64,000 bases of DNA from an uncultured delta proteobacterium. Lineage in GTDB: Bacteria > Desulfobacterota > Binatia > UBA9968. Location: positions 1,056,001-1,120,000 of the forward strand of contig CAVYTU010000017.1 in NCBI GenBank assembly GCA_963771465.1, read 5' to 3'. Shown in pieces: positions 2,347-12,034 of this stretch. The translations under genes and the position numbers were made by a program. How positions within the stretch are numbered: position 1 is the stretch's first letter; the number at the start of each line of letters is the position of its first letter. Under the pieces are notes generated by a model, which saw only the letters and a program-made list of their open reading frames with translations, did not search any database and was not told where the DNA came from.

Positions 2347-3678
2347 GTGATGTTGGGGAAAAATAAGCAACCAATGTTGGATTCCATCGCAGATCGATCG
2401 AAGCAATCCGCGAACGCCGAAAGCTTGATCGATCAAAAGGTCGAAGAGGCGGTTACGCACGCTGTTTTCGGCTCTGACCTAAGGCGCCGAGAATTTATTC
2501 GCTACGTCGGTGTTGGCGGTGCCACGGCGATTCTCAATTCGATTTTTCCCATGGGCGCGGCGAAAGCTCTGGCTCAGGGTAAGACGGGACCGATCGAAAA
2601 AAAGGAGCTTAAGGTCGGCTTTATCCCGATTACCTGCGCGACACCGATCATCATGGCCGAGCCGATGGGGTTCTATAAAAAACACGGCCTCGATGTTCAA
2701 GTGCACAAAGCCTCCGGTTGGGCGATGATCCGCGATCTGTCCATCAACGGCGAGACCGACGCGACGCATATGTTGACGCCGATGCCGCTGGCGATCAGCA
2801 TGGGCACGGGCTCCCAGTCGGTGCCCTTCGTCATGCCGGCGATCGAAAACATCAACGGTCAGGCGATCACCCTCGCCAACAAACACAAAGGCGTCAAAGA
2901 AGCCAAGGAGATGAAAGGTTTTAAGTTTTGCGTCCCCTTTGACTACTCGATGCATAATTTTCTGCTGCGCTATTTCCTCGCCGAAGGCGGTATCGATCCC
3001 GATAAGGACGTGCAGATTCGCGTCGTGCCGCCGGCCGAGATGGTGGCGAACTTGAGAGCGGGCAACGTCGACGGCTATCTCGCGCCGGATCCGTTCAATC
3101 AGCGCGCCGTGTATGAAGGCGAAGGTTTCATTTTCATGCTCAGCAAAGACATCTGGCCGGGCCATCCGTGCTGCGCCTTTGCCACGCGCAAAGACTTCGC
3201 CGAAAAAAATCCCAACACGTTTCAGGCGCTCTTCAAAGCCATCGTCGACGCCACCCAATACGCTCACGACGCCGGGCACCGCAAGGAAATCGCCAAAGCG
3301 ATTGCACCGCGCAACTTCTTAAACCAGCCGGTGGAGCTGCTCGAACAGGTTTTAACCGGCGTGTATCCCGACGGCTTGGGAAACACCAAGAATGTGCCGG
3401 ACCGCATCGACTTCGATCCGTTCCCGTATCATTCCATGGCGATTTGGATTCTCACACAGATGAAACGCTGGGGTTATATCAAGCAAGATGTCGACTACAA
3501 AAAACTCGCCCAAGAAGTCTACCTGGCGTCGGGCTGCCGCGAAGTCATGAAGTCACTCAGCTACAAGGCGCCGGCGCAGGATTCGACCAAGCACCAGTTT
3601 ACCTTTGGCAAAAATAAAACTTTCGATCCCAATGCTCCCGCGGAATACATTCGTTCGTTCCCGATTCGCCGGGCCTAA
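2347..3678 (+). CDS. cynA: Cyanate ABC transporter substrate-binding protein (CmpA/NrtA/CynA family)
   Basis: Tat-like RREF, GFIPITCATP, PDPFNQR, HPCCAF and DRIDFDPFP motifs; in an operon with cyanase. Confidence 0.85.
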   Translation: MMLGKNKQPMLDSIADRSKQSANAESLIDQKVEEAVTHAVFGSDLRRREFIRYVGVGGATAILNSIFPMGAAKALAQGKTGPIEKKELKVGFIPITCATPIIMAEPMGFYKKHGLDVQVHKASGWAMIRDLSINGETDATHMLTPMPLAISMGTGSQSVPFVMPAIENINGQAITLANKHKGVKEAKEMKGFKFCVPFDYSMHNFLLRYFLAEGGIDPDKDVQIRVVPPAEMVANLRAGNVDGYLAPDPFNQRAVYEGEGFIFMLSKDIWPGHPCCAFATRKDFAEKNPNTFQALFKAIVDATQYAHDAGHRKEIAKAIAPRNFLNQPVELLEQVLTGVYPDGLGNTKNVPDRIDFDPFPYHSMAIWILTQMKRWGYIKQDVDYKKLAQEVYLASGCREVMKSLSYKAPAQDSTKHQFTFGKNKTFDPNAPAEYIRSFPIRRA

Positions 3679-4505: not shown

Positions 4506-5354
4506 ATGGCGTTTCTCGAAGTCGAGTATGTCAGCAAATTTTTTCCCGAGGCGGGCGGCCGACAGCTTTGCGTATTTAAAGATGTTCGTTTGCACATCGA
4601 GAAAAGCGAGTTCGTTACCACGGTCGGCCACTCGGGCTGCGGCAAGAGCACGTTACTAAACATCATCGCCGGGTTGGAAAAGGCCAGCGCGGGCGCGATC
4701 ATCTTGGACGGTAAGGAAACCGACACTCCCGGCCTCGACCGCATGGTGGTGTTCCAGAATTTCTCGCTGCTGCCTTGGATGAGCGTCTACGAAAATATCC
4801 ATCTGGCAGTGAAGGCGGCGTTTTCCGACTGGCCGGCGCAAAAGATCAATGACTACGTGCAGCGCTATATCAATATGGTCGGCCTGGCCGGCTCGGAACA
4901 TAAAAAACCGGCGGCGCTCTCGGGCGGCATGCGGCAAAGAGTGGGACTGGCGCGCGCCTTCGCGGTGCAGCCGAAGGTGCTTTTGCTCGACGAGCCGTTT
5001 GCGCAGATCGACGCTCTGACTCGCGGCACGATTCAGGACGAGCTCATGCGCATGTGGACGGCGACGCGGAATACCGTCTTCATGGTCACCCATGATGTCG
5101 AGGAGGCGATCCTGCTCTCCGACAAGATCGCTTTGATGACCAGCGGCCCGTCGGCCGAGCTGGCGGAAGTGGTGGAGATCAAGTTTCCCCGGCCGAGGGT
5201 GCGCGAGGAAATTTTGGATCTGCCTGAGTTTATACGCATCAAGAAACATATCATTCAGTTCCTCAAGAACTGCGCGCGCGAACACCCTGTTGAAAGCTCG
5301 ACACCCAATGCCGATGCGTTGATTGTCGCCCAGCAGATCGGCGTCGAAACGTGA
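4506..5354 (+). CDS. cynD: Cyanate/nitrate ABC transporter ATP-binding protein (NrtD/CynD)
   Basis: Walker A GHSGCGKST, signature LSGGMRQR, Walker B LLLDEPF. Confidence 0.85.
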   Translation: MAFLEVEYVSKFFPEAGGRQLCVFKDVRLHIEKSEFVTTVGHSGCGKSTLLNIIAGLEKASAGAIILDGKETDTPGLDRMVVFQNFSLLPWMSVYENIHLAVKAAFSDWPAQKINDYVQRYINMVGLAGSEHKKPAALSGGMRQRVGLARAFAVQPKVLLLDEPFAQIDALTRGTIQDELMRMWTATRNTVFMVTHDVEEAILLSDKIALMTSGPSAELAEVVEIKFPRPRVREEILDLPEFIRIKKHIIQFLKNCAREHPVESSTPNADALIVAQQIGVET

Positions 5355-5413
5355 GATGGCGCATACGTAGCAGCTCAATGAGCTTATATTAATTAGTGAG
5401 GAGGTAAGGAAAA

Positions 5414-5872
5414 ATGATCACACGGCAGGAAGCTACGGCGAAGATTCTCGGCGCGAAGCAGAAACAGAAGCTTACTTGGGAACAGATCGCCAAGGGCGTC
5501 GGACGTCACAAGATCTGGACCACGGCGGCGCTGCTCGGCCAGCATCCGATGTCAGCTGAGGAAGCCGATAGTGTCATTAAAATCCTTGGTTTTTCCGGCG
5601 CGGAGGCGGAAGTGGTCGCATCAGCTCTCCAAGAGTTCCCGATGCGAGGATCATTGGACAGCGCGGTGCCCGTGGACCCGACGATCTATCGCTTCTATGA
5701 GCTCATCCAAGTCTACGGCCCGACGATCAAAGCGCTGATCCACGAAGAATTCGGCGACGGCATCATGAGCGCCATCGATTTCGACATGGAAATTCAACGG
5801 AAAGCAGATCCCAAGGGAGATCGCGTGGTGTTGACGCTCAACGGCAAGTTTCTGCCGTATAAGAAGTTTTAG
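5414..5872 (+). CDS. cynS: Cyanate hydratase (cyanase)
   Basis: DPTIYRFYE, HEEFGDGIMSAIDF and GKFLPY hallmark motifs. Confidence 0.97.
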   Translation: MITRQEATAKILGAKQKQKLTWEQIAKGVGRHKIWTTAALLGQHPMSAEEADSVIKILGFSGAEAEVVASALQEFPMRGSLDSAVPVDPTIYRFYELIQVYGPTIKALIHEEFGDGIMSAIDFDMEIQRKADPKGDRVVLTLNGKFLPYKKF

Positions 5873-5878
5873 CTTTAG

Positions 5879-7381
5879 CTATTCCCAGCTCGGTTCTTGG
5901 CCGGCATTCTGACCGGCGATCTTGCCGGCCACGAAGCACTCGGTGATATTTCCCGCTTCTAAATAGAGATGGCCGTAAATCGAGCTGATCTCACCGGCGA
6001 CGTAGAGGCGCGGGATCGGCCGTTTCATCGGGTCGAGGACGCGCTGTTTCACATCGTGTTCCGGGCCGCCTTGGGTATTGTTGACAATGGGCCATGCTTC
6101 CATGACGTAGTAAGGCGGATTTTTGATCGGCATCATGGTTTTCGACGGCCGCTTGTGGTCTTCGTCCTGGCCTTTGGCGCATAGCTCGTTCCAACGCTCG
6201 ACCGTGGCTCTCAGCACTTTCGGATTGACATCGATCTGCGCGGCGATGTCTTCCAGTGAGTTGCCCTTCTTAATCCAACCTTTGTCGAGTTCGGCGAGAT
6301 TGTCCTCGCTCCAACTGGCGTCGTAGCGCTCGTCGTTGACGATCGGTATGCCGATGGGTCCGAGCTTGCGACCTTCTTCGTCGAAGATCAGATGGCAGGG
6401 GATACGCGGATAATCTTGAATATCCGCGTCATAATATTCCAGCGGCCGCGTGCCGGTATCCTGCGGCGCGGGCGGATACTCGTCCATGAAGCGCTTGCCG
6501 AACTTGTCGACGCCAATCCAGATCATTTTGCGATTTTCATTTCTCGGTCCGGCCCAAACGTGGCGAATCGCAAACGGCAGCTCGGGGAATTTAAAGCCAT
6601 AGCCGCCGTGGAAATGCCACATATGCCAGAGCGACGCGCCGGCTTTCTGCGCCATCTTGACGCCATCGCCGGTGTTGCCGAGATAGACGGGGTAGACCGG
6701 CTGCGCTTCGAAGTATTGCAGCTTCATGGCGTCATCGTTTTCGTAGCCGCCGCAGGCGAGGATCACGCCTTTGCGCGCTTTGATGTTGAAGGCTTTACCC
6801 TCGCGCTCGGTTTGCAGTCCGATTATTTCTCCGTCCGCGTTGGTGATCAGCTCTTTTGCCGGCGTCGACAGCAGCACTTCGATGTTGCGCGTGTGGACGT
6901 TGTCGTAGACGACTTTGAACAAGCGCGCGCCGCCGCGCAATCCTTTAGCCCAGGGAAATTCCGTGTAGGCTTGAAAGTCTTTGAGTTTGATCGAATCGAT
7001 GTCGTTGGTGCCGGGGAAGGGATAAGTGCCGTGACCGCGGGTTTCAGTTTTAGTCGGCTCGGTGCCGCTGACTTTGGCTAGCTCGGTGAGCCAGTCAATC
7101 ATGCCGACCATCTCTTCGGCCATCTTGCGCAAGATGTCGTCCGGCGTAGTGCCGTTGCAGGTACGCTGCAAATATTGAAAAGCACCCTCGGCGTTATGCG
7201 CAAACGCCACGCCACCGCCGGAGAGAATCGAAATGCCGCCGGGATGGGGCATCTTTTCGATCAGCAATACTTTCGCGCCGGCATCGTGTGCGGTGATCGC
7301 CGAGATGCCGCCCGCCGCGCCGAAACCGACGACGATGACGTCGACTTCTTTGTCCCAGTGAGTTTGCCCGTTGTTTGTCAT
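5879..7381 (-). CDS. FAD-dependent oxidoreductase (fumarate reductase flavoprotein / 3-ketosteroid dehydrogenase-like, FAD_binding_2)
   Basis: VVGFGAAG, LACGGYE, NTGDG, TQGG and PIPRLYVAGE motifs; AAGGAG RBS before the ATG at 7381. Confidence 0.85.
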   Translation of the reverse strand: MTNNGQTHWDKEVDVIVVGFGAAGGISAITAHDAGAKVLLIEKMPHPGGISILSGGGVAFAHNAEGAFQYLQRTCNGTTPDDILRKMAEEMVGMIDWLTELAKVSGTEPTKTETRGHGTYPFPGTNDIDSIKLKDFQAYTEFPWAKGLRGGARLFKVVYDNVHTRNIEVLLSTPAKELITNADGEIIGLQTEREGKAFNIKARKGVILACGGYENDDAMKLQYFEAQPVYPVYLGNTGDGVKMAQKAGASLWHMWHFHGGYGFKFPELPFAIRHVWAGPRNENRKMIWIGVDKFGKRFMDEYPPAPQDTGTRPLEYYDADIQDYPRIPCHLIFDEEGRKLGPIGIPIVNDERYDASWSEDNLAELDKGWIKKGNSLEDIAAQIDVNPKVLRATVERWNELCAKGQDEDHKRPSKTMMPIKNPPYYVMEAWPIVNNTQGGPEHDVKQRVLDPMKRPIPRLYVAGEISSIYGHLYLEAGNITECFVAGKIAGQNAGQEPSWE

Positions 7382-7416
7382 CGCTAGAAACTCCTTCTCA
7401 TTCATCCAGTCAGATT

Positions 7417-7492
7417 CCTTCCCCTTGATGGGGAAGGACAAAGGAAGGGGTGATTTTGAATTTTCACTGGCACCCCCATCTCAATCTTCGCC
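7417..7492. repeat. REP-like palindrome (CCTTCCCC-N5-GGGGAAGG) with a degenerate second arm
   Basis: Perfect 8-bp inverted repeat at 7417-7437, followed by GGGGTG...CACCCC. Confidence 0.55.
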
Positions 7493-7501
7493 TGCTAACT
7501 C

Positions 7502-8611
7502 TTACAGCCGCTCCTCCAGCCAATCCAACATGTACGGCAGATTATGCGCCCAGTAGTCGTGACTGCAATGGATGCGGCCGGCGCCGTCTGCTTCGCCGTA
7601 AATTTTCAGTGTCTTGTCTTTGGCGCCAATCTCTTCGAATAGCCGTTTGGCGCCTTCGACTGACATCAGTGTGTCTTTATCGCCGTGGGTGATAAGTGTG
7701 GGGCAAGTGATGTTTTTGGCGATGCCGGCCATGGTGAAATCTTTCAACTGCCGGCGCGCCTCTTCGTGGCTGACGCCGCCGAGTAGTCTTTGACACACCG
7801 GTTGCAAGTGCACGCACCAGTCGTAGAGGTCGTCGAGAATGCTGTAACAGCCGCTCCACGCGACTAGAGCCTTGATGCGCTTTTCAAATGCAGCGACCCG
7901 CGGCGCGTAATAGCCGGCCATGCTGATGCCGAGCAGCCCGACTCGGCTGGCATCGACTTCCGGCCGGGAGATTAAATAATCGATGCAAGCTTTGCCCGGC
8001 ACTTCGTAATCGGGCCGGGTCTTGATTCCTTTCAAGTACATCGACGAACCGCGCCCGGGAGTGTCGACTAACAGCATCGCCCAGCCACGATCGAGCATCT
8101 GTTTGCCGCCGAAGTAGATTTCTTCGGCGTAGGCGTCGGCACCGCCGAGGAATAGCACCGCCGGCCACTTGCCCGGTTTGGGATTCACCGGATGGCAGAA
8201 ATAGCCGTCGTATTCCTCGTCGCCACAGCGCACCGAGACGACTTCGATCTTCGTCGGGTTGAGCTTGGCGGCGGCGCGAAAGTTTTCTTGTGACTTGCGA
8301 AAGCGCTCGCCCCGTTTGGTTTCCTCGGCGCTGGTCAGAAGCACGTCGGACATTCGATAATAATTGCTGGCGTGAAAGAAGTTTTGCCGCGCGGTTGCGC
8401 TATGCCCTGCTGCTAGCGCGGCTTTGGCGCGCGCTTCGCTCTTCTCGGCCAGCGCCAGCCATTCGCGCTCCCAAGCGTCTTTATCGCCAGCTTCCACGTT
8501 CTTCATCGCCCGGGCGATATCGAAGACATCGGCGCCGCCCTGCTGCGCCTGGGCGACGAGCCGCAAGGTATGGCCGCCGAAAGGGTGATTGGGAAATAGA
8601 AAGTCGAACAT
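7502..8611 (-). CDS. Alpha/beta hydrolase, FrsA / 2,6-dihydroxypseudooxynicotine hydrolase-like
   Basis: GISMAG nucleophile elbow, DTPGRG, CPTLITHGDKD, C-terminal HC. Confidence 0.8.
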   Translation of the reverse strand: MFDFLFPNHPFGGHTLRLVAQAQQGGADVFDIARAMKNVEAGDKDAWEREWLALAEKSEARAKAALAAGHSATARQNFFHASNYYRMSDVLLTSAEETKRGERFRKSQENFRAAAKLNPTKIEVVSVRCGDEEYDGYFCHPVNPKPGKWPAVLFLGGADAYAEEIYFGGKQMLDRGWAMLLVDTPGRGSSMYLKGIKTRPDYEVPGKACIDYLISRPEVDASRVGLLGISMAGYYAPRVAAFEKRIKALVAWSGCYSILDDLYDWCVHLQPVCQRLLGGVSHEEARRQLKDFTMAGIAKNITCPTLITHGDKDTLMSVEGAKRLFEEIGAKDKTLKIYGEADGAGRIHCSHDYWAHNLPYMLDWLEERL

Positions 8612-8806
8612 CAAACCTCCGATGAGTGACTCGCAAGTTGCAACTAGTAACGCCGGGTAATTTACCCGCTACGAATCCAAAGAAATAATCCCAATCGAAG
8701 CGAAAGTACAAGTGTGTTGTCAAGTGAAGACAAAAAGATCTGCTTGACAGCTGCAATGGGGGTTGCTAACTCTCTCATCACAACAAGATTTCCTCAACTT
8801 TGACAG

Positions 8807-8921
8807 ACTCTCGCGATTCAGAGCAGCAGTGCAAGGAGCGCGGCGTGATCTTCAGAGGGGAATTACACGGCGGAAAGCCGGTTGCTTTTGCGAATAGTCG
8901 CGGGAGTAGGCCGGCTTTTTT
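8807..8921 (+). ncRNA. Candidate riboswitch/attenuator leader of unknown class, with intrinsic terminator
   Basis: 12-bp stem 8807-8818/8896-8907 enclosing a multi-hairpin junction; an alternative long hairpin 8874-8918 ends in a U-tract; the two folds are mutually exclusive. Confidence 0.5.
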
Positions 8922-8948
8922 ATTTCCTGTTGCCGGAACGAGGCCTTG

Positions 8949-9266
8949 ATGGCGACCTATGTCTCGCTGGTAAACTTTACCGAAGAGGGCGCGCGCCACA
9001 TTCGCCAGACCACCGAGAGAGCCAAAGGTTTGATCAACGCTGCGGCCAATCTTGGCATCAAGATCAAGGAGATTTACTGGACCATGGGCGCGTTTGACGC
9101 GGTGTTTACCGCCGATGCGCCGGACGATGAGACGATGACAGCGTTCGCCGTGAGCATCGCTTCTCTCGGCAATATCCGCACGCAGACGTTGAGAGCCTTT
9201 TCCGTAAATGAAATGAACAAGATTGTCGCGATGCTGCCGACAACCGAAGTGACTTCGAGGAGATAG
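8949..9266 (+). CDS. GYD domain-containing protein
   Basis: YVSLVNFTEEG...YWTMGAFD...GNIRTQTLRAF pattern typical of the GYD family. Confidence 0.85.
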   Translation: MATYVSLVNFTEEGARHIRQTTERAKGLINAAANLGIKIKEIYWTMGAFDAVFTADAPDDETMTAFAVSIASLGNIRTQTLRAFSVNEMNKIVAMLPTTEVTSRR

Positions 9267-9294
9267 CAGCTAAAGAACAGAGGAGGTATCGGGT

Positions 9295-11085
9295 ATGGCG
9301 CAAGTCGATCTTTCAATCGCAATCGGCGGCGCAGCCGGCCAAGGTATCGCGACACCGGGCGATATCTTGGCGCGCATCTTCGTCCGCCGCGGACTACATC
9401 TTAACGCCTACAACGCTTACCAGTCGATCGTGCGCGGCGGTCACATCTTTTTGACCTTGCGCACCAGCGACGCGCCGGTGCTGAGCTTCGGCGACAAGCT
9501 CGATGTTTTAATCGCGCTCAATCAAGACACCATGAATCGCCATTTGGGTCTGATGCAGTCAGGCTCCTCCGTGCTTTACAACAAAGACAAGATCAAGCCT
9601 GACAACGCTGCGGACGGGGTTCAACTTTGCGGCTTTTCGGTGAAGGAACTGGCGCCGGCGGTTCGAGGCGACCTGGTGCAGAATACGATTGCGTTGGCCG
9701 CGGTGCTGCGGCTGATCGGCGTCGACTTCAAAATTCTCGAAGAGATACTCACTCTCCAATTCAAACGGAAAGGCGAGGCGGTGGTAGCGGAAAACGTCGG
9801 TGTCGCACGGGCAGGTTACGATCATGCGGCGACCGAGTTCAAAGGGCTTCCCTTCGCTCTGCCGGACACCGGAAAAAAACTAGCGTTCTTCGAAGGCAAC
9901 CAGGCATTGGCGATGGGCGGTGCGGCGGCGGGTGTGCGTTTTTACTGCGCCTATCCGATGAGCCCGTCCTCTGGGGTGCTTCATTGGATGGCACGCCACG
10001 CGCGCCAGTTGGGCATTATGGTGCGCCAAGTGGAAGATGAGATCGGCGTCATCAACATGGCGATTGGCGCCGCGCATGCGGGCTGCCGCGCCATGTGCGC
10101 GACCTCGGGCGGCGGTTTTGCTTTGATGACCGAAGGCCTCGGCGCTGCGGCGATGATGGAAATCCCGGTCGTCTGCATCAACGTGCAGCGCGCCGGCCCC
10201 GCTACCGGCGTGCCGACTAAAACGGAACAAGGCGATCTGTGGCAAGTGCTGGGCGCGGGACAGGGCGATTACCCGCGCATCATCGTGGCGCCGACGACGA
10301 TCCCGGATTGTTTCAAAACCGTGCCCCAACTTTTTAACTTGGTCGACAAGTTTCAGTGCCCGGGAATTGTTCTCTCCGATTTATTGCTCTCCGAAGGCCG
10401 ATCGAGTGTCGACCCAGCTGAGTTGGATTTCAACGTCGCCATCGAGCGCGGCGAGGTGATCGGTCTAAACGGCGCGACGCCGCCGCTCAACGGCGGCTAC
10501 AAACGCTATGAGATCAATGACAGCGGCATTTCGCCGCGGGCGCTGCCGGGCACTCTGGGTTTCGAGCATGTCGTCGCCACCGACGATCATGATGAAGATG
10601 GCGTGCTGATCAGCGACGAGTACACCAACCCGCACAAGCGCCAGGCGATGCATGAAAAACGCATGCGCAAGATGGAAAGCATTCTGCCGCTGCTCGATGC
10701 GCCGAAGCTTTGGGGAGCCCAAGACGCTCAAGTCACGCTCGTCGGTTGGGGCTCTACCGAAGGGGTCGTCCAAGAGGCGATACAGCAGCTGGCCGACAAG
10801 GGAGGAATATCTGCCAATCTTCTCCAGATCAAATGGCTTGTGCCCTTACATGGCGAAGTGATTACTTCAACCCTGGCGAACAGCAAGAAAGTTATCATCG
10901 TCGAGAACAACTACAGCGGCCAGTTTGCGCGCTACCTACGGTCGGAGACCGGCATCGTCGCGGACGGCCATATTCGTAAATACGACGGTGAGCCATTCAT
11001 GCCGCATCATGTCGTCGACGGCGTAAAGGCGATTCTAAGCGGAACGACACATCAGTATGTCCCAGTGCACGAGATTATGGTCTAA
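9295..11085 (+). CDS. korA: 2-oxoacid:ferredoxin oxidoreductase alpha subunit (with fused gamma domain)
   Basis: GGAAGQGI, YQSIVRGGH, AYPMSPSS, QVEDEI, ATSGGGFALM and RAGPATGVPTKTEQGD motifs; substrate specificity not resolved. Confidence 0.9.
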   Translation: MAQVDLSIAIGGAAGQGIATPGDILARIFVRRGLHLNAYNAYQSIVRGGHIFLTLRTSDAPVLSFGDKLDVLIALNQDTMNRHLGLMQSGSSVLYNKDKIKPDNAADGVQLCGFSVKELAPAVRGDLVQNTIALAAVLRLIGVDFKILEEILTLQFKRKGEAVVAENVGVARAGYDHAATEFKGLPFALPDTGKKLAFFEGNQALAMGGAAAGVRFYCAYPMSPSSGVLHWMARHARQLGIMVRQVEDEIGVINMAIGAAHAGCRAMCATSGGGFALMTEGLGAAAMMEIPVVCINVQRAGPATGVPTKTEQGDLWQVLGAGQGDYPRIIVAPTTIPDCFKTVPQLFNLVDKFQCPGIVLSDLLLSEGRSSVDPAELDFNVAIERGEVIGLNGATPPLNGGYKRYEINDSGISPRALPGTLGFEHVVATDDHDEDGVLISDEYTNPHKRQAMHEKRMRKMESILPLLDAPKLWGAQDAQVTLVGWGSTEGVVQEAIQQLADKGGISANLLQIKWLVPLHGEVITSTLANSKKVIIVENNYSGQFARYLRSETGIVADGHIRKYDGEPFMPHHVVDGVKAILSGTTHQYVPVHEIMV

Positions 11086-11095
11086 GGAGTAATTT

Positions 11096-12034
11096 ATGAA
11101 CGAGCCCGCGATTGAGATGAGAGCAAAACCTTCGAGCCCACGGGATAGCGGCGGCCGCGGTCCGCAACTCACGATCAAGGATTTCAAAGGCAAAGCGGAA
11201 CCGGACTGGTGTCCCGGCTGCGGCGACTTCGGCGTCCTGGTCGCATTGAAGCAGGCGCTCGCGGAGCTCGGTGTTCAACCTCACCAGGCGATGGTGATCA
11301 GCGGCATCGGCTGCTCGTCCAACCTTCCCGGCTACATCAGCACCTACGGCATGCACACCTTGCACGGCCGCGCGCTGGCAGTCGCCACCGGCGCCCAGAT
11401 GGCGAATCATGAACTGAAAATCATCGTCACCGGCGGCGACGGCGATGGCTACGGCATCGGCGGTAACCATTTCGTGCACACAATGCGCCGCAACGTCGAT
11501 CTCACCTATATCGTGATGAACAACCAGGTTTACGGTCTCACCACCGGGCAGGTGTCGCCGACCAGCACCAAGGGTATGAAAACCAAGAGCACGCCGGCGG
11601 GAAGCGTGGAGAATCCGCTCAATCCGATCCCTCTGGCGATCGCTGCCGGCGCGACCTATGTGGCGCGCGGTTACACCGGTCAGGTAAAGCATTTGGTCGA
11701 GCTCATCAAAGGCGGCATTCAGCATCGCGGATTTTCATTGATCGACGCCTTCAGTCCGTGTGTGACATTCAATCTCGAAAACGATCACGACTTTTTCAAA
11801 CAACGGACTTTTAAGCTCGAGGATAAGAAGCATGATCCGACCGACTTCGCCGCCGCCATGAAATACGGTTACGAATGGGGCGATGAAATCGCCATCGGTT
11901 TATTTTGGAAGCGAGACGATCTGCCCGCTTTGGATCAACTGGAGCCGGTTCTCGACGAAGGTGGTGCGCTGGCGCGACGCAAACTTGGAATTTCTCCTGA
12001 TGCCGCAAAATCGCTGATTCGAGAATTGATGTGA
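11096..12034 (+). CDS. korB: 2-oxoacid:ferredoxin oxidoreductase beta subunit
   Basis: WCPGCGD, SGIGCS, TPP-binding GGDGD...NN, YGLTTGQ and SPCVTF motifs. Confidence 0.9.
   Translation: MNEPAIEMRAKPSSPRDSGGRGPQLTIKDFKGKAEPDWCPGCGDFGVLVALKQALAELGVQPHQAMVISGIGCSSNLPGYISTYGMHTLHGRALAVATGAQMANHELKIIVTGGDGDGYGIGGNHFVHTMRRNVDLTYIVMNNQVYGLTTGQVSPTSTKGMKTKSTPAGSVENPLNPIPLAIAAGATYVARGYTGQVKHLVELIKGGIQHRGFSLIDAFSPCVTFNLENDHDFFKQRTFKLEDKKHDPTDFAAAMKYGYEWGDEIAIGLFWKRDDLPALDQLEPVLDEGGALARRKLGISPDAAKSLIRELM

Follow-up and report, generated by a model that had tools for sequence, protein, structure and literature searches.

A structured RNA ahead of GYD-korAB in an uncultured Binatia bacterium: a putative transcription-attenuating leader and its multicopy RNA family

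The GYD-korAB locus and its leader RNA

The window analyzed here is a 64,000-nucleotide (nt) stretch of DNA from an uncultured bacterium of the class Binatia (contig CAVYTU010000017.1, positions 1,056,001 to 1,120,000). In this window, the interval between a divergently oriented alpha/beta-hydrolase gene (7502-8614, minus strand) and a gene encoding a GYD-domain protein contains a short structured RNA element that ends in an intrinsic terminator; the GYD gene is followed by korA and korB, which encode the subunits of a 2-oxoacid:ferredoxin oxidoreductase. We propose that the element is a cis-acting 5′ leader that attenuates the transcription of GYD-korAB and that it is a divergent member of a multicopy RNA family, a reading to which we assign a probability of roughly 0.55. 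Its relatives are referred to as type 1, as the more distant type 2, and as canonical copies, and they were collected with two covariance models, R1 and R2. The features of the locus are as follows.

8744-8749, plus strand: -35 hexamer TTGACA of the leader's own promoter, read from the sequence; conservation among loci of the same genus starts here
8767-8772, plus strand: weak -10-like hexamer TAACTC, 17 nt past the -35 hexamer, proposed by eye; the homologs have TGG-TAGCGT
8779-8925, plus strand: leader RNA, with its start predicted from the promoter and its end placed at the U-tract; 181.5 bits with R1 and 76.8 bits with R2
8789-8795, plus strand: C-run UUUCCUC, 5′ strand of the outer long-range helix, from its pairing with 8855-8864 in the minimum free energy (MFE) structure and from covariation in canonical copies
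8796-8803, plus strand: conserved block AACUUUGA, kept in the alignments of type 1, type 2 and canonical copies
8834-8852, plus strand: P3 hairpin AAGGAGCGC-GGC-GUGAUCUU, which contains the invariant AAGGAGCGCGG, from pairing in 46 relatives and in the canonical homologue
8855-8864, plus strand: G-run GAGGGGAAUU, 3′ strand of the outer helix, from the MFE structure and from pairing in 46 relatives
8873-8925, plus strand: long two-part intrinsic terminator (stem 8873-8919) with its U-tract, from the MFE and centroid structures and from covariation in 46 relatives
8949-9266, plus strand: GYD-domain gene (PF08734, Pfam E = 6.8e-28), with its ATG at 8949-8951, 28 nt past 8921
9295-11085, plus strand: korA, 2-oxoacid:ferredoxin oxidoreductase subunit; the Pfam domains POR_N, POR, TPP_enzyme_C and PFO_beta_C extend across korA and korB
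11096-12034, plus strand: korB, 2-oxoacid:ferredoxin oxidoreductase subunit, assigned from the same set of Pfam domains

A consensus scan reported no promoter at the TAACTC site, and no better -10 hexamer than TAACTC was seen by eye. An earlier note on this DNA had described the TTGACA at 8744, the GYD start 28 nt past 8921 and two alternative folds of the RNA, and all of them are found where it had placed them. It had also presented the element as a candidate new riboswitch or attenuator controlling GYD-korAB. As a candidate new cis-regulator the element stands: Rfam 15 gave no match at gathering score in the 64-kb window, and the best match within 8600-8960 had E = 0.19. Since the 28 nt before GYD leave no room for a promoter, the expression of GYD-korAB would require read-through of the terminator.

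Comparative support for the predicted folds

The two folds described previously are a three-hairpin aptamer (fold A) and a long terminator (fold B), which were regarded as the mutually exclusive states of an ON riboswitch. In the window, all 33 pairs of fold A (8807-8818 with 8896-8907, 8820-8827 with 8881-8888, and the three hairpins) are standard, as are all 20 pairs of fold B at 8874-8918. RNAfold gave -54.5 kcal/mol for 8780-8930, compared with -42.7 +/- 3.7 kcal/mol for 200 shuffles (z = -3.19, with no shuffle as good). Both the MFE and the centroid structures of this segment consist of fold B and a long irregular 5′ hairpin (8787-8864), and fold A is absent from them. A simple terminator scan did not report the fold B hairpin because this hairpin is long and bulged.

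We compared the folds on alignments of 9 sequences, of 13 non-redundant type-1 sequences including metagenome copies, and of 46 sequences to which the more distant type 2 had been added. The alignments were made with plain MAFFT or were model-based, and the loci of genomes flagged as unpublished were left out of all of them. Fold A paired in 82.4%, 83.4% and 58.4% of the cells of the three alignments, respectively (53.4% for its helix P1 in the largest), and its covariation score was reached by 360, 149 and 169 of 500 shuffles. The 5′ hairpin together with the terminator paired in 87.6% of the 9-sequence alignment, with eight pairs changed on both sides (0/500 shuffles), and in 89.1% of the type-1 alignment, with seven such changes (0-1/500 shuffles). 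In the 46 sequences, the terminator paired in 83.4% of the cells and showed both-sided changes in 14 of its 20 pairs. In these alignments, the structure supported by comparison is the terminator plus the 5′ stem-loop, and fold A is not conserved. Thus, the comparison of relatives upheld one half of the earlier proposal, since the terminator and the 5′ domain exceed shuffles, and did not uphold the other, the aptamer. Because fold A is neither conserved nor covarying, a mutually exclusive pair of aptamer and terminator is not supported.

An ON riboswitch specific to korAB, in which fold A competes with fold B, is accordingly highly improbable. Apart from the complete pairing of fold A in the window, this explanation draws on transcripts cut before the 3′ arm of the terminator, which in three of the eight type-1 genome sequences (L020, L022 and L023) form a related junction that uses the terminator 5′ arm, and on a single compensatory change from C-G to U-A at 8824/8884 in one metagenome copy (L154). 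Nevertheless, no measure of fold A rose above shuffles in any of the three alignments, the predicted structures do without it, and the family to which the element belongs is not specific to korAB.

The 5′ domain consists of the outer C-run:G-run helix, a second helix, P3a and an apical hairpin. In the 46 sequences, it paired in 77.4% of the cells, with a covariation score of 0.240 versus 0.201 (0/500 shuffles); the outer helix paired in 93.3% and 77.5% of the cells and P3 in 75.0%. In the MFE structure of the window, the 5′ strand of P3 pairs upstream with 8813-8819 instead. The sequence AAGGAGCGC-GGC-GUGAUCUU maps to P3; therefore, the invariant AAGGAGCGCGG forms the 5′ strand of this hairpin, and not a small hairpin's loop as had been assumed, and it is common to the wider family.

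An upstream open reading frame (ORF) starting at the GUG at 8845, with AAGGAG as its Shine-Dalgarno (SD) sequence, was considered and rejected. Stops occur in this frame in 7 of the 46 relatives, compared with 40 and 18 in the other two frames; a NUG is kept at 8845 in 45 of the 46, and the frame is open through the terminator in approximately 38. Nevertheless, AAGGAGCGC/GUGAUC is the P3 hairpin, which is common to canonical copies and whose 3′ strand contains the GUG at 8845, the peptide has no coding signature in 33 type-2 sequences, and the stop positions show no preference beyond the constraint from the conserved GYD sequence.

A 22-nt exact match to 8832-8853 was observed in five related genomes (L010-L013 and L017), in the same sense and inside a coding sequence (...AKERGVIFDVGH...) that by eye is amidohydrolase-like. 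The chance expectation in the 60 genomes searched is, as a rough estimate, 0.008. All five matches lie in one orthologous gene and therefore count as one event; their position within a coding sequence ruled them out as homologs of the RNA.

Relatives and distribution of the family

A DNA search of 60 related genomes identified seven homologs in the same genus, with 79-85% identity and with similarity running from the -35 hexamer to the U-tract. At eight of nine loci the element has the same orientation and precedes GYD-korA or korA alone, and this position is kept where GYD is missing (G002 and G004) or where the upstream gene is different (G014). The gap between the terminator and GYD is 109-180 nt in G003 and G020, and the ninth locus, G023, differs in that the gene after the element encodes a DUF772 transposase.

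Model R1 matched in 20 of the 31 genomes of the genus and in 36 of the 123 genomes of the order. In metagenome contigs it identified 43 copies, all of which end just upstream of a GYD gene. The hexamer TTGACA/T lies 5′ of 39 of 40 genome copies and 41 of 43 metagenome copies. The R1 matches confined to the terminator (L031, L033-L036 and L038) were discarded, as they are the terminators of other genes and not members of the family. At these same loci, two-part terminators of the form AGCCAGC...GCG...CGC...GCTGGCTTTTT recur behind unrelated genes of the genus, which looks like a lineage-typical style of terminator.

Model R2 was built from 25 canonical copies with a structure for the terminator only, so that the 5′ part of the canonical alignment is by sequence alone. 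It matched in 60 of the 123 genomes of the order and in 23 of its 27 genera, with approximately 203 matches in all; the genome tallies of both models include genomes flagged as unpublished (G005, G085 and G088). The highest copy numbers were 23 (G045), 18 (G041), 13 (G043) and 10 (G037). No match was found in 150 genomes sampled from the rest of the phylum, nor upstream of 92 of 94 GYD loci of other lineages and phyla; the two matches at such loci were a full copy in L205 and a weak match of 14.1 bits in L127. Rfam 15 gave no match in 20 homolog loci and nothing at E <= 5 for a canonical copy, and literature searches on the GYD domain with riboswitches, on Binatota riboswitches and on Binatia small RNA (sRNA) found no description of such an RNA; the novelty of the family is stated with respect to these searches. 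On the strength of the sequence comparisons, the window element is best described as a diverged representative, linked to korAB, of an RNA family that is multicopy and restricted to one lineage.

The genome of the window has a second, degenerate copy (C14:306008-306172, L233:1501-1665; 42.8 bits), in which the G-run and the terminator are eroded and which lies 95 nt upstream of a gene for an NMT1/THI5-like binding protein. In G045, contig C413 carries three copies (2986-3155, 5228-5371 and 5709-5852) within approximately 3 kb of one strand, an arrangement that suggests tandem leader-gene cassettes.

High copy numbers, the three neighboring copies in G045, the degenerate second copy in the window's own genome and the lack of a covarying alternative structure would also fit a repeated cassette of a promoter and a leaky terminator that senses nothing, serving as an insulator against read-through or persisting as the remnant of a mobile element. 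We consider this explanation distinctly unlikely, as the compensatory changes in the 5′ domain go well beyond what a promoter and a terminator need and the orientation to the downstream gene is consistent. Additionally, no flanking repeats or transposase were found by reading the copies, a reading made without a dedicated repeat search.

The canonical form of the RNA

A canonical copy is a structured RNA of approximately 150 nt between a promoter and a terminator. Its elements are, in order, a TTGACA promoter, RGCCUC-CCCCC, A(U/G)CAUUGA, a small hairpin, UGAGGCY, P3 (GAGGAACG...CGUUCCUC), GGAGGGGGAA, a purine-rich linker and a long two-part terminator. We measured its structure on 80 copies aligned to R2. 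P3 paired in 82.2% of the cells, with all eight pairs changed on both sides. The C-run:G-run helix paired in 80.8%, with four of six pairs changed on both sides, including three swaps from CG to GC; an alternative, shifted register of this helix paired in 79.0%. The terminator helices paired in 95.4% and 82.2%, and the structure as a whole scored 0.252 versus 0.186 (0/500 shuffles). UGAGGCY has two mutually exclusive candidate partners, the 5′ RGCCUC (70.5%) and the local GGCUUC (78.8%).

The canonical G-run is GGAGGGGG, which contains GGAGG and is followed by an ATG. The ATG lies 5-7 nt past the G-run in 60 of the 80 copies (GTG in 10, TTG in 10 and CTG in 3). In 27 copies, the resulting ORF is exactly five codons long, with 2 nt between its stop and the terminator stem; 32 of the 60 ORFs have a stop at -5 to +2 nt relative to where the stem begins, and most of the others are open through the stem. 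An ATG and a short frame after the GGAGG run make the G-run look like an SD sequence masked by the C-run. A study in E. coli (PMC4824070) describes a terminator located a few bp past a translated gene as almost completely repressed. The layout of the canonical copies suggests that they may act as ribosome-gated attenuators.

Genes downstream of the RNA

The genes that follow the RNA were surveyed in 61 further copies from 26 genomes, in which an ORF was counted if it had at least 50 codons and an SD-like motif and lay on the same strand within 420 nt. Such an ORF was present in 58 of the 61 copies, often 9-80 nt away. Pfam assigned 17 of the 58 to GYD, 1 to korA and 6 to solute-binding proteins, and 20 had no family; the others include tRNA_edit (two), PspA, CBS, TenA-like, GFA, dehydrogenase, amylase, esterase, MOSC, NosD-like, glyoxalase, TIR, cupin and ABC ATPase. 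Copies found earlier precede TPR, ABC_sub_bind and ABM proteins. After the 46 aligned type-1 and type-2 leaders, the next gene is GYD in 40 cases, korA in 3 and a transposase gene in 1, with 2 cases left unassigned. Three paralog groups can be distinguished among the downstream GYD genes, which are 20-68% identical to the GYD of the window; therefore, the link between the RNA and GYD is not the simple inheritance of one locus. With the same RNA family in front of three GYD paralog groups, solute-binding proteins and many other genes, the suggested link to a thiamine pyrophosphate/Fe-S enzyme is not specific.

One canonical copy (L060:1148-1435, minus strand) precedes a further small protein, an ABM-domain protein of 95 amino acids whose broad fold, an alpha+beta barrel or ferredoxin-like one, is probably the same as that of GYD.

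A stand-alone family of trans-acting sRNAs that bind target mRNAs through a C-rich or 5′ CA-rich region, and that lie ahead of GYD through synteny alone, is an unlikely alternative with several observations on its side. The RNA has its own promoter and a strong terminator, its conservation stops at the U-tract, and up to 23 copies occur per genome. Furthermore, the 5′ end CACAACAAGA is kept in type 1 and type 2, a CA-rich linker lies ahead of the terminator, and spacers of 109-403 nt or a transposase gene precede the next gene in G003, G020 and G023. Nevertheless, the position of the RNA is not independent of genes: all 43 metagenome copies are directly upstream of GYD, the RNA recurs ahead of three GYD paralog groups, and the same-strand ORFs found within 420 nt in 58 of the 61 further copies have start codons that in many cases are 9-80 nt away. 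The C-run that would have to reach other mRNAs is paired within the RNA, with covariation, and in the window no promoter was found in the 28-nt gap between 8921 and the ATG. A cis-acting leader is favored by the consistent orientation, by the proximity of the downstream gene and by a gap in the window that, at 28 nt, is too small for a promoter.

The GYD protein of the window was modeled with a pLDDT of 91.6 as a ferredoxin-like beta-alpha-beta fold. The nearest structures by fold are TTHA0845 as well as stand-alone RAM and ACT domains, with ribosomal protein S6 as a weaker match; no solved structure matches GYD by sequence, and a literature search on the domain (PF08734) found barely a mention. 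GYD is present in 78 of the 123 genomes of the order. G037, a one-contig genome that is 97% complete, has 10 copies of the RNA and no GYD match. A hand tally of the 95 genomes of f1 and f2, which counts three genomes flagged as unpublished (G005, G088 and G035), gave 43 with both, 12 with the RNA only, 12 with GYD only and 28 with neither. Considering G037 and the 12 of 55 RNA-positive f1 and f2 genomes without GYD, this gene is the commonest target of the RNA and not an obligatory partner.

These data also bear on the idea that the GYD protein is itself the effector, an RNA-binding attenuation protein in the style of PyrR or HutP that acts on its own and other leaders. GYD is by far the commonest downstream gene (17 of the 58 downstream ORFs and 40 of the 46 type-1 and type-2 leaders), and its ferredoxin-like fold has ribosomal protein S6 among its matches. 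Nevertheless, such a regulator would be missing from genomes that carry the RNA, 92 of the 94 GYD loci of other phyla are without the RNA, and the best fold matches are RAM/ACT-like domains that bind small molecules. We therefore regard an effector role of GYD as very unlikely.

Proposed mechanism and its support

In the mechanism that we propose for the cis-acting leader, a sigma-70-type promoter (TTGACA at 8744) would start an RNA of approximately 147 nt. Its 5′ domain would be closed by the C-run:G-run helix (8789-8795 with 8855-8864), with P3 inside, and the terminator at 8873-8925 would halt transcription, with the GYD start still 28 nt ahead. How much transcription continues past the terminator would depend on an effector that acts on the 5′ domain. 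In canonical copies, a ribosome at the unmasked site would occlude the terminator's 5′ arm and thereby suppress termination. The window copy would have lost the ATG, and the candidate triggers for it are a metabolite, a protein, or a re-pairing of 8811-8827 with 8881-8893.

Two properties expected of a riboswitch are present in the element, namely, a structured domain with covariation (0/500 shuffles) and the position of a 5′ leader on the same strand as the gene. A terminator placed to suit a ribosome on a leader ORF is seen in canonical copies, and this property is inapplicable to the window copy.

Several observations weigh against the attenuation model. Three candidate competing pairings were evaluated, and none of them covaries: besides fold A, the antiterminator AT2 (8811-8816 with 8888-8893 and 8821-8827 with 8881-8887) paired in 91.7% of the cells in the 13 type-1 sequences with no covariation, and a pairing of the P2 5′ strand with the terminator base reached 79.5%, with 42-50 of 500 shuffles as good. 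The downstream genes are heterogeneous, so that no single metabolite is indicated, and the one metabolite or pathway that riboswitch-controlled genes would share is not apparent among them. The window copy and 45 type-1 and type-2 relatives have no ATG after the G-run, and the ribosome model is therefore not transferable to the window copy. Among the canonical copies themselves, the ATG is missing in 20 of 80, and the ORFs can be as short as 3 codons or longer than 20. In G003, G020 and G023, the next gene begins 109-403 nt past the terminator, in one case beyond a transposase gene; the copies there may act independently of the downstream gene. Finally, one contig from the RNA libraries, X19 (8637-8824), crosses the promoter, so that these libraries may hold DNA.

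Two further approaches were abandoned. The folding of truncated transcripts, aimed at a common antiterminator, gave heterogeneous predictions in type 2, and all-against-all pair scans on the MAFFT alignments were uninformative, as pairs of purine runs with U-runs dominate them.

The four RNA libraries gave contigs X15, X16, X17 and X19, which cover parts of 8525-9672 at a depth of 1-5. These contigs give neither ends nor strand, and cover gaps and apparent ends were not used. X15 spans 8749-8903, and X16 spans 8793-8993, over the terminator and into GYD. The contigs are compatible with read-through and are no evidence of regulation; X16 is a weak indication, given the low depth and the possible carry-over of DNA.

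A more specific proposal is that the family represents a new class of sensory leader, in which a covarying helix of anti-SD and SD strands gates a mini-ORF of five codons abutting the terminator, initiation is converted into read-through, and a 5′ domain that senses a ligand or condition co-regulates GYD, korAB and binding proteins. The window copy would then be a derived one that lost the mini-ORF and kept the sensor and the terminator. This proposal is tentative, and on present evidence we would sooner doubt than accept it.

Other features of the locus and its relatives

Just upstream of the hydrolase gene of the window are a cyanate lyase gene (Cyanate_lyase and CYNS_N, 5414-5872) and a gene for an FAD_binding_2 oxidoreductase (5879-7441). 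A block, AGAAATAATCCCAATCGAAGCGAAAGTACAAG (approximately 8673-8715), located 30-70 nt 5′ of the -35 hexamer, is kept at five of the eight type-1 loci: the window's own, G002, G004, G023 and, in part, G024. It is absent from G003, G020 and G014. A regulator may bind there, or the block may be the promoter that drives the divergent hydrolase gene.

The spacers of 109 to approximately 400 nt that follow the terminator at some loci (L019, which is G003; L022, which is G023; and L156) contain an inverted repeat similar to GTGAA-N7-TTCAC (...CTGTGAATNNGGTTTTCAC...). This repeat resembles a site of the CRP/FNR family, and GYD-korAB may be transcribed from an additional promoter at those loci.

Comparison with known systems

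In the pyrBI attenuator of E. coli, a leader ORF runs through the intrinsic terminator. The family shares with it the order of promoter, leader and intrinsic terminator just before the first structural gene. The frame of many canonical copies likewise reaches or crosses the terminator, where a ribosome close behind the polymerase could block the hairpin. Nevertheless, the family bears no mark of a UTP-sensitive pause logic and adds a 5′ domain masking the SD-like run; additionally, approximately half of its ORFs have five codons, and the window copy has none. The bmrCD operon of Bacillus subtilis is reportedly controlled by ribosome-mediated transcription attenuation through the BmrB leader peptide. 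In both cases, a short leader ORF ahead of an intrinsic terminator couples, or in our family would couple, translation to read-through; however, bmrCD encodes a drug pump and responds to stalling caused by antibiotics, whereas our family precedes GYD, korAB, binding proteins and other genes.

The preQ1-II and SAM-II riboswitches are pseudoknots that sequester the SD sequence. As in these riboswitches, a purine-rich SD-like run forms the 3′ strand of a covarying long-range helix. The family differs from them in having no Rfam match at E <= 5, in the coupling of a masked SD sequence to a terminator, which it would add, and in genes that suggest no single metabolite. A genome can carry many c-di-GMP-I (GEMM) riboswitches, which precede genes of diverse and often unknown function and in many cases end in a terminator. 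The family resembles them in its multiple copies ahead of heterogeneous genes and in its terminators, but it has no sequence or structure match in Rfam 15 and is confined to a single order, with no match among 150 genomes from the rest of the phylum. The sucA RNA motif is an orphan leader ahead of 2-oxoglutarate dehydrogenase genes. Both it and the window element are orphan structured leaders before an enzyme that oxidizes 2-oxoacids; nevertheless, they are different RNAs, as no Rfam match was found, and the family is tied to GYD and not to the oxidoreductase.

Implications

The comparison of relatives corrects the fold proposed for the window element. If our reading is true, one uncultured, soil-dwelling order holds more than 200 copies of a structured leader RNA outside Rfam. 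The canonical layout, with a masked SD sequence, an ATG and a mini-ORF that extends to the terminator base, would offer a compact test bed for the coupling of ribosomes and RNA polymerase and a potential synthetic part. The RNA would also be the first regulatory handle on the GYD domain (PF08734), and its putative regulon would join three GYD paralog groups, the 2-oxoacid:ferredoxin oxidoreductase and several binding proteins.

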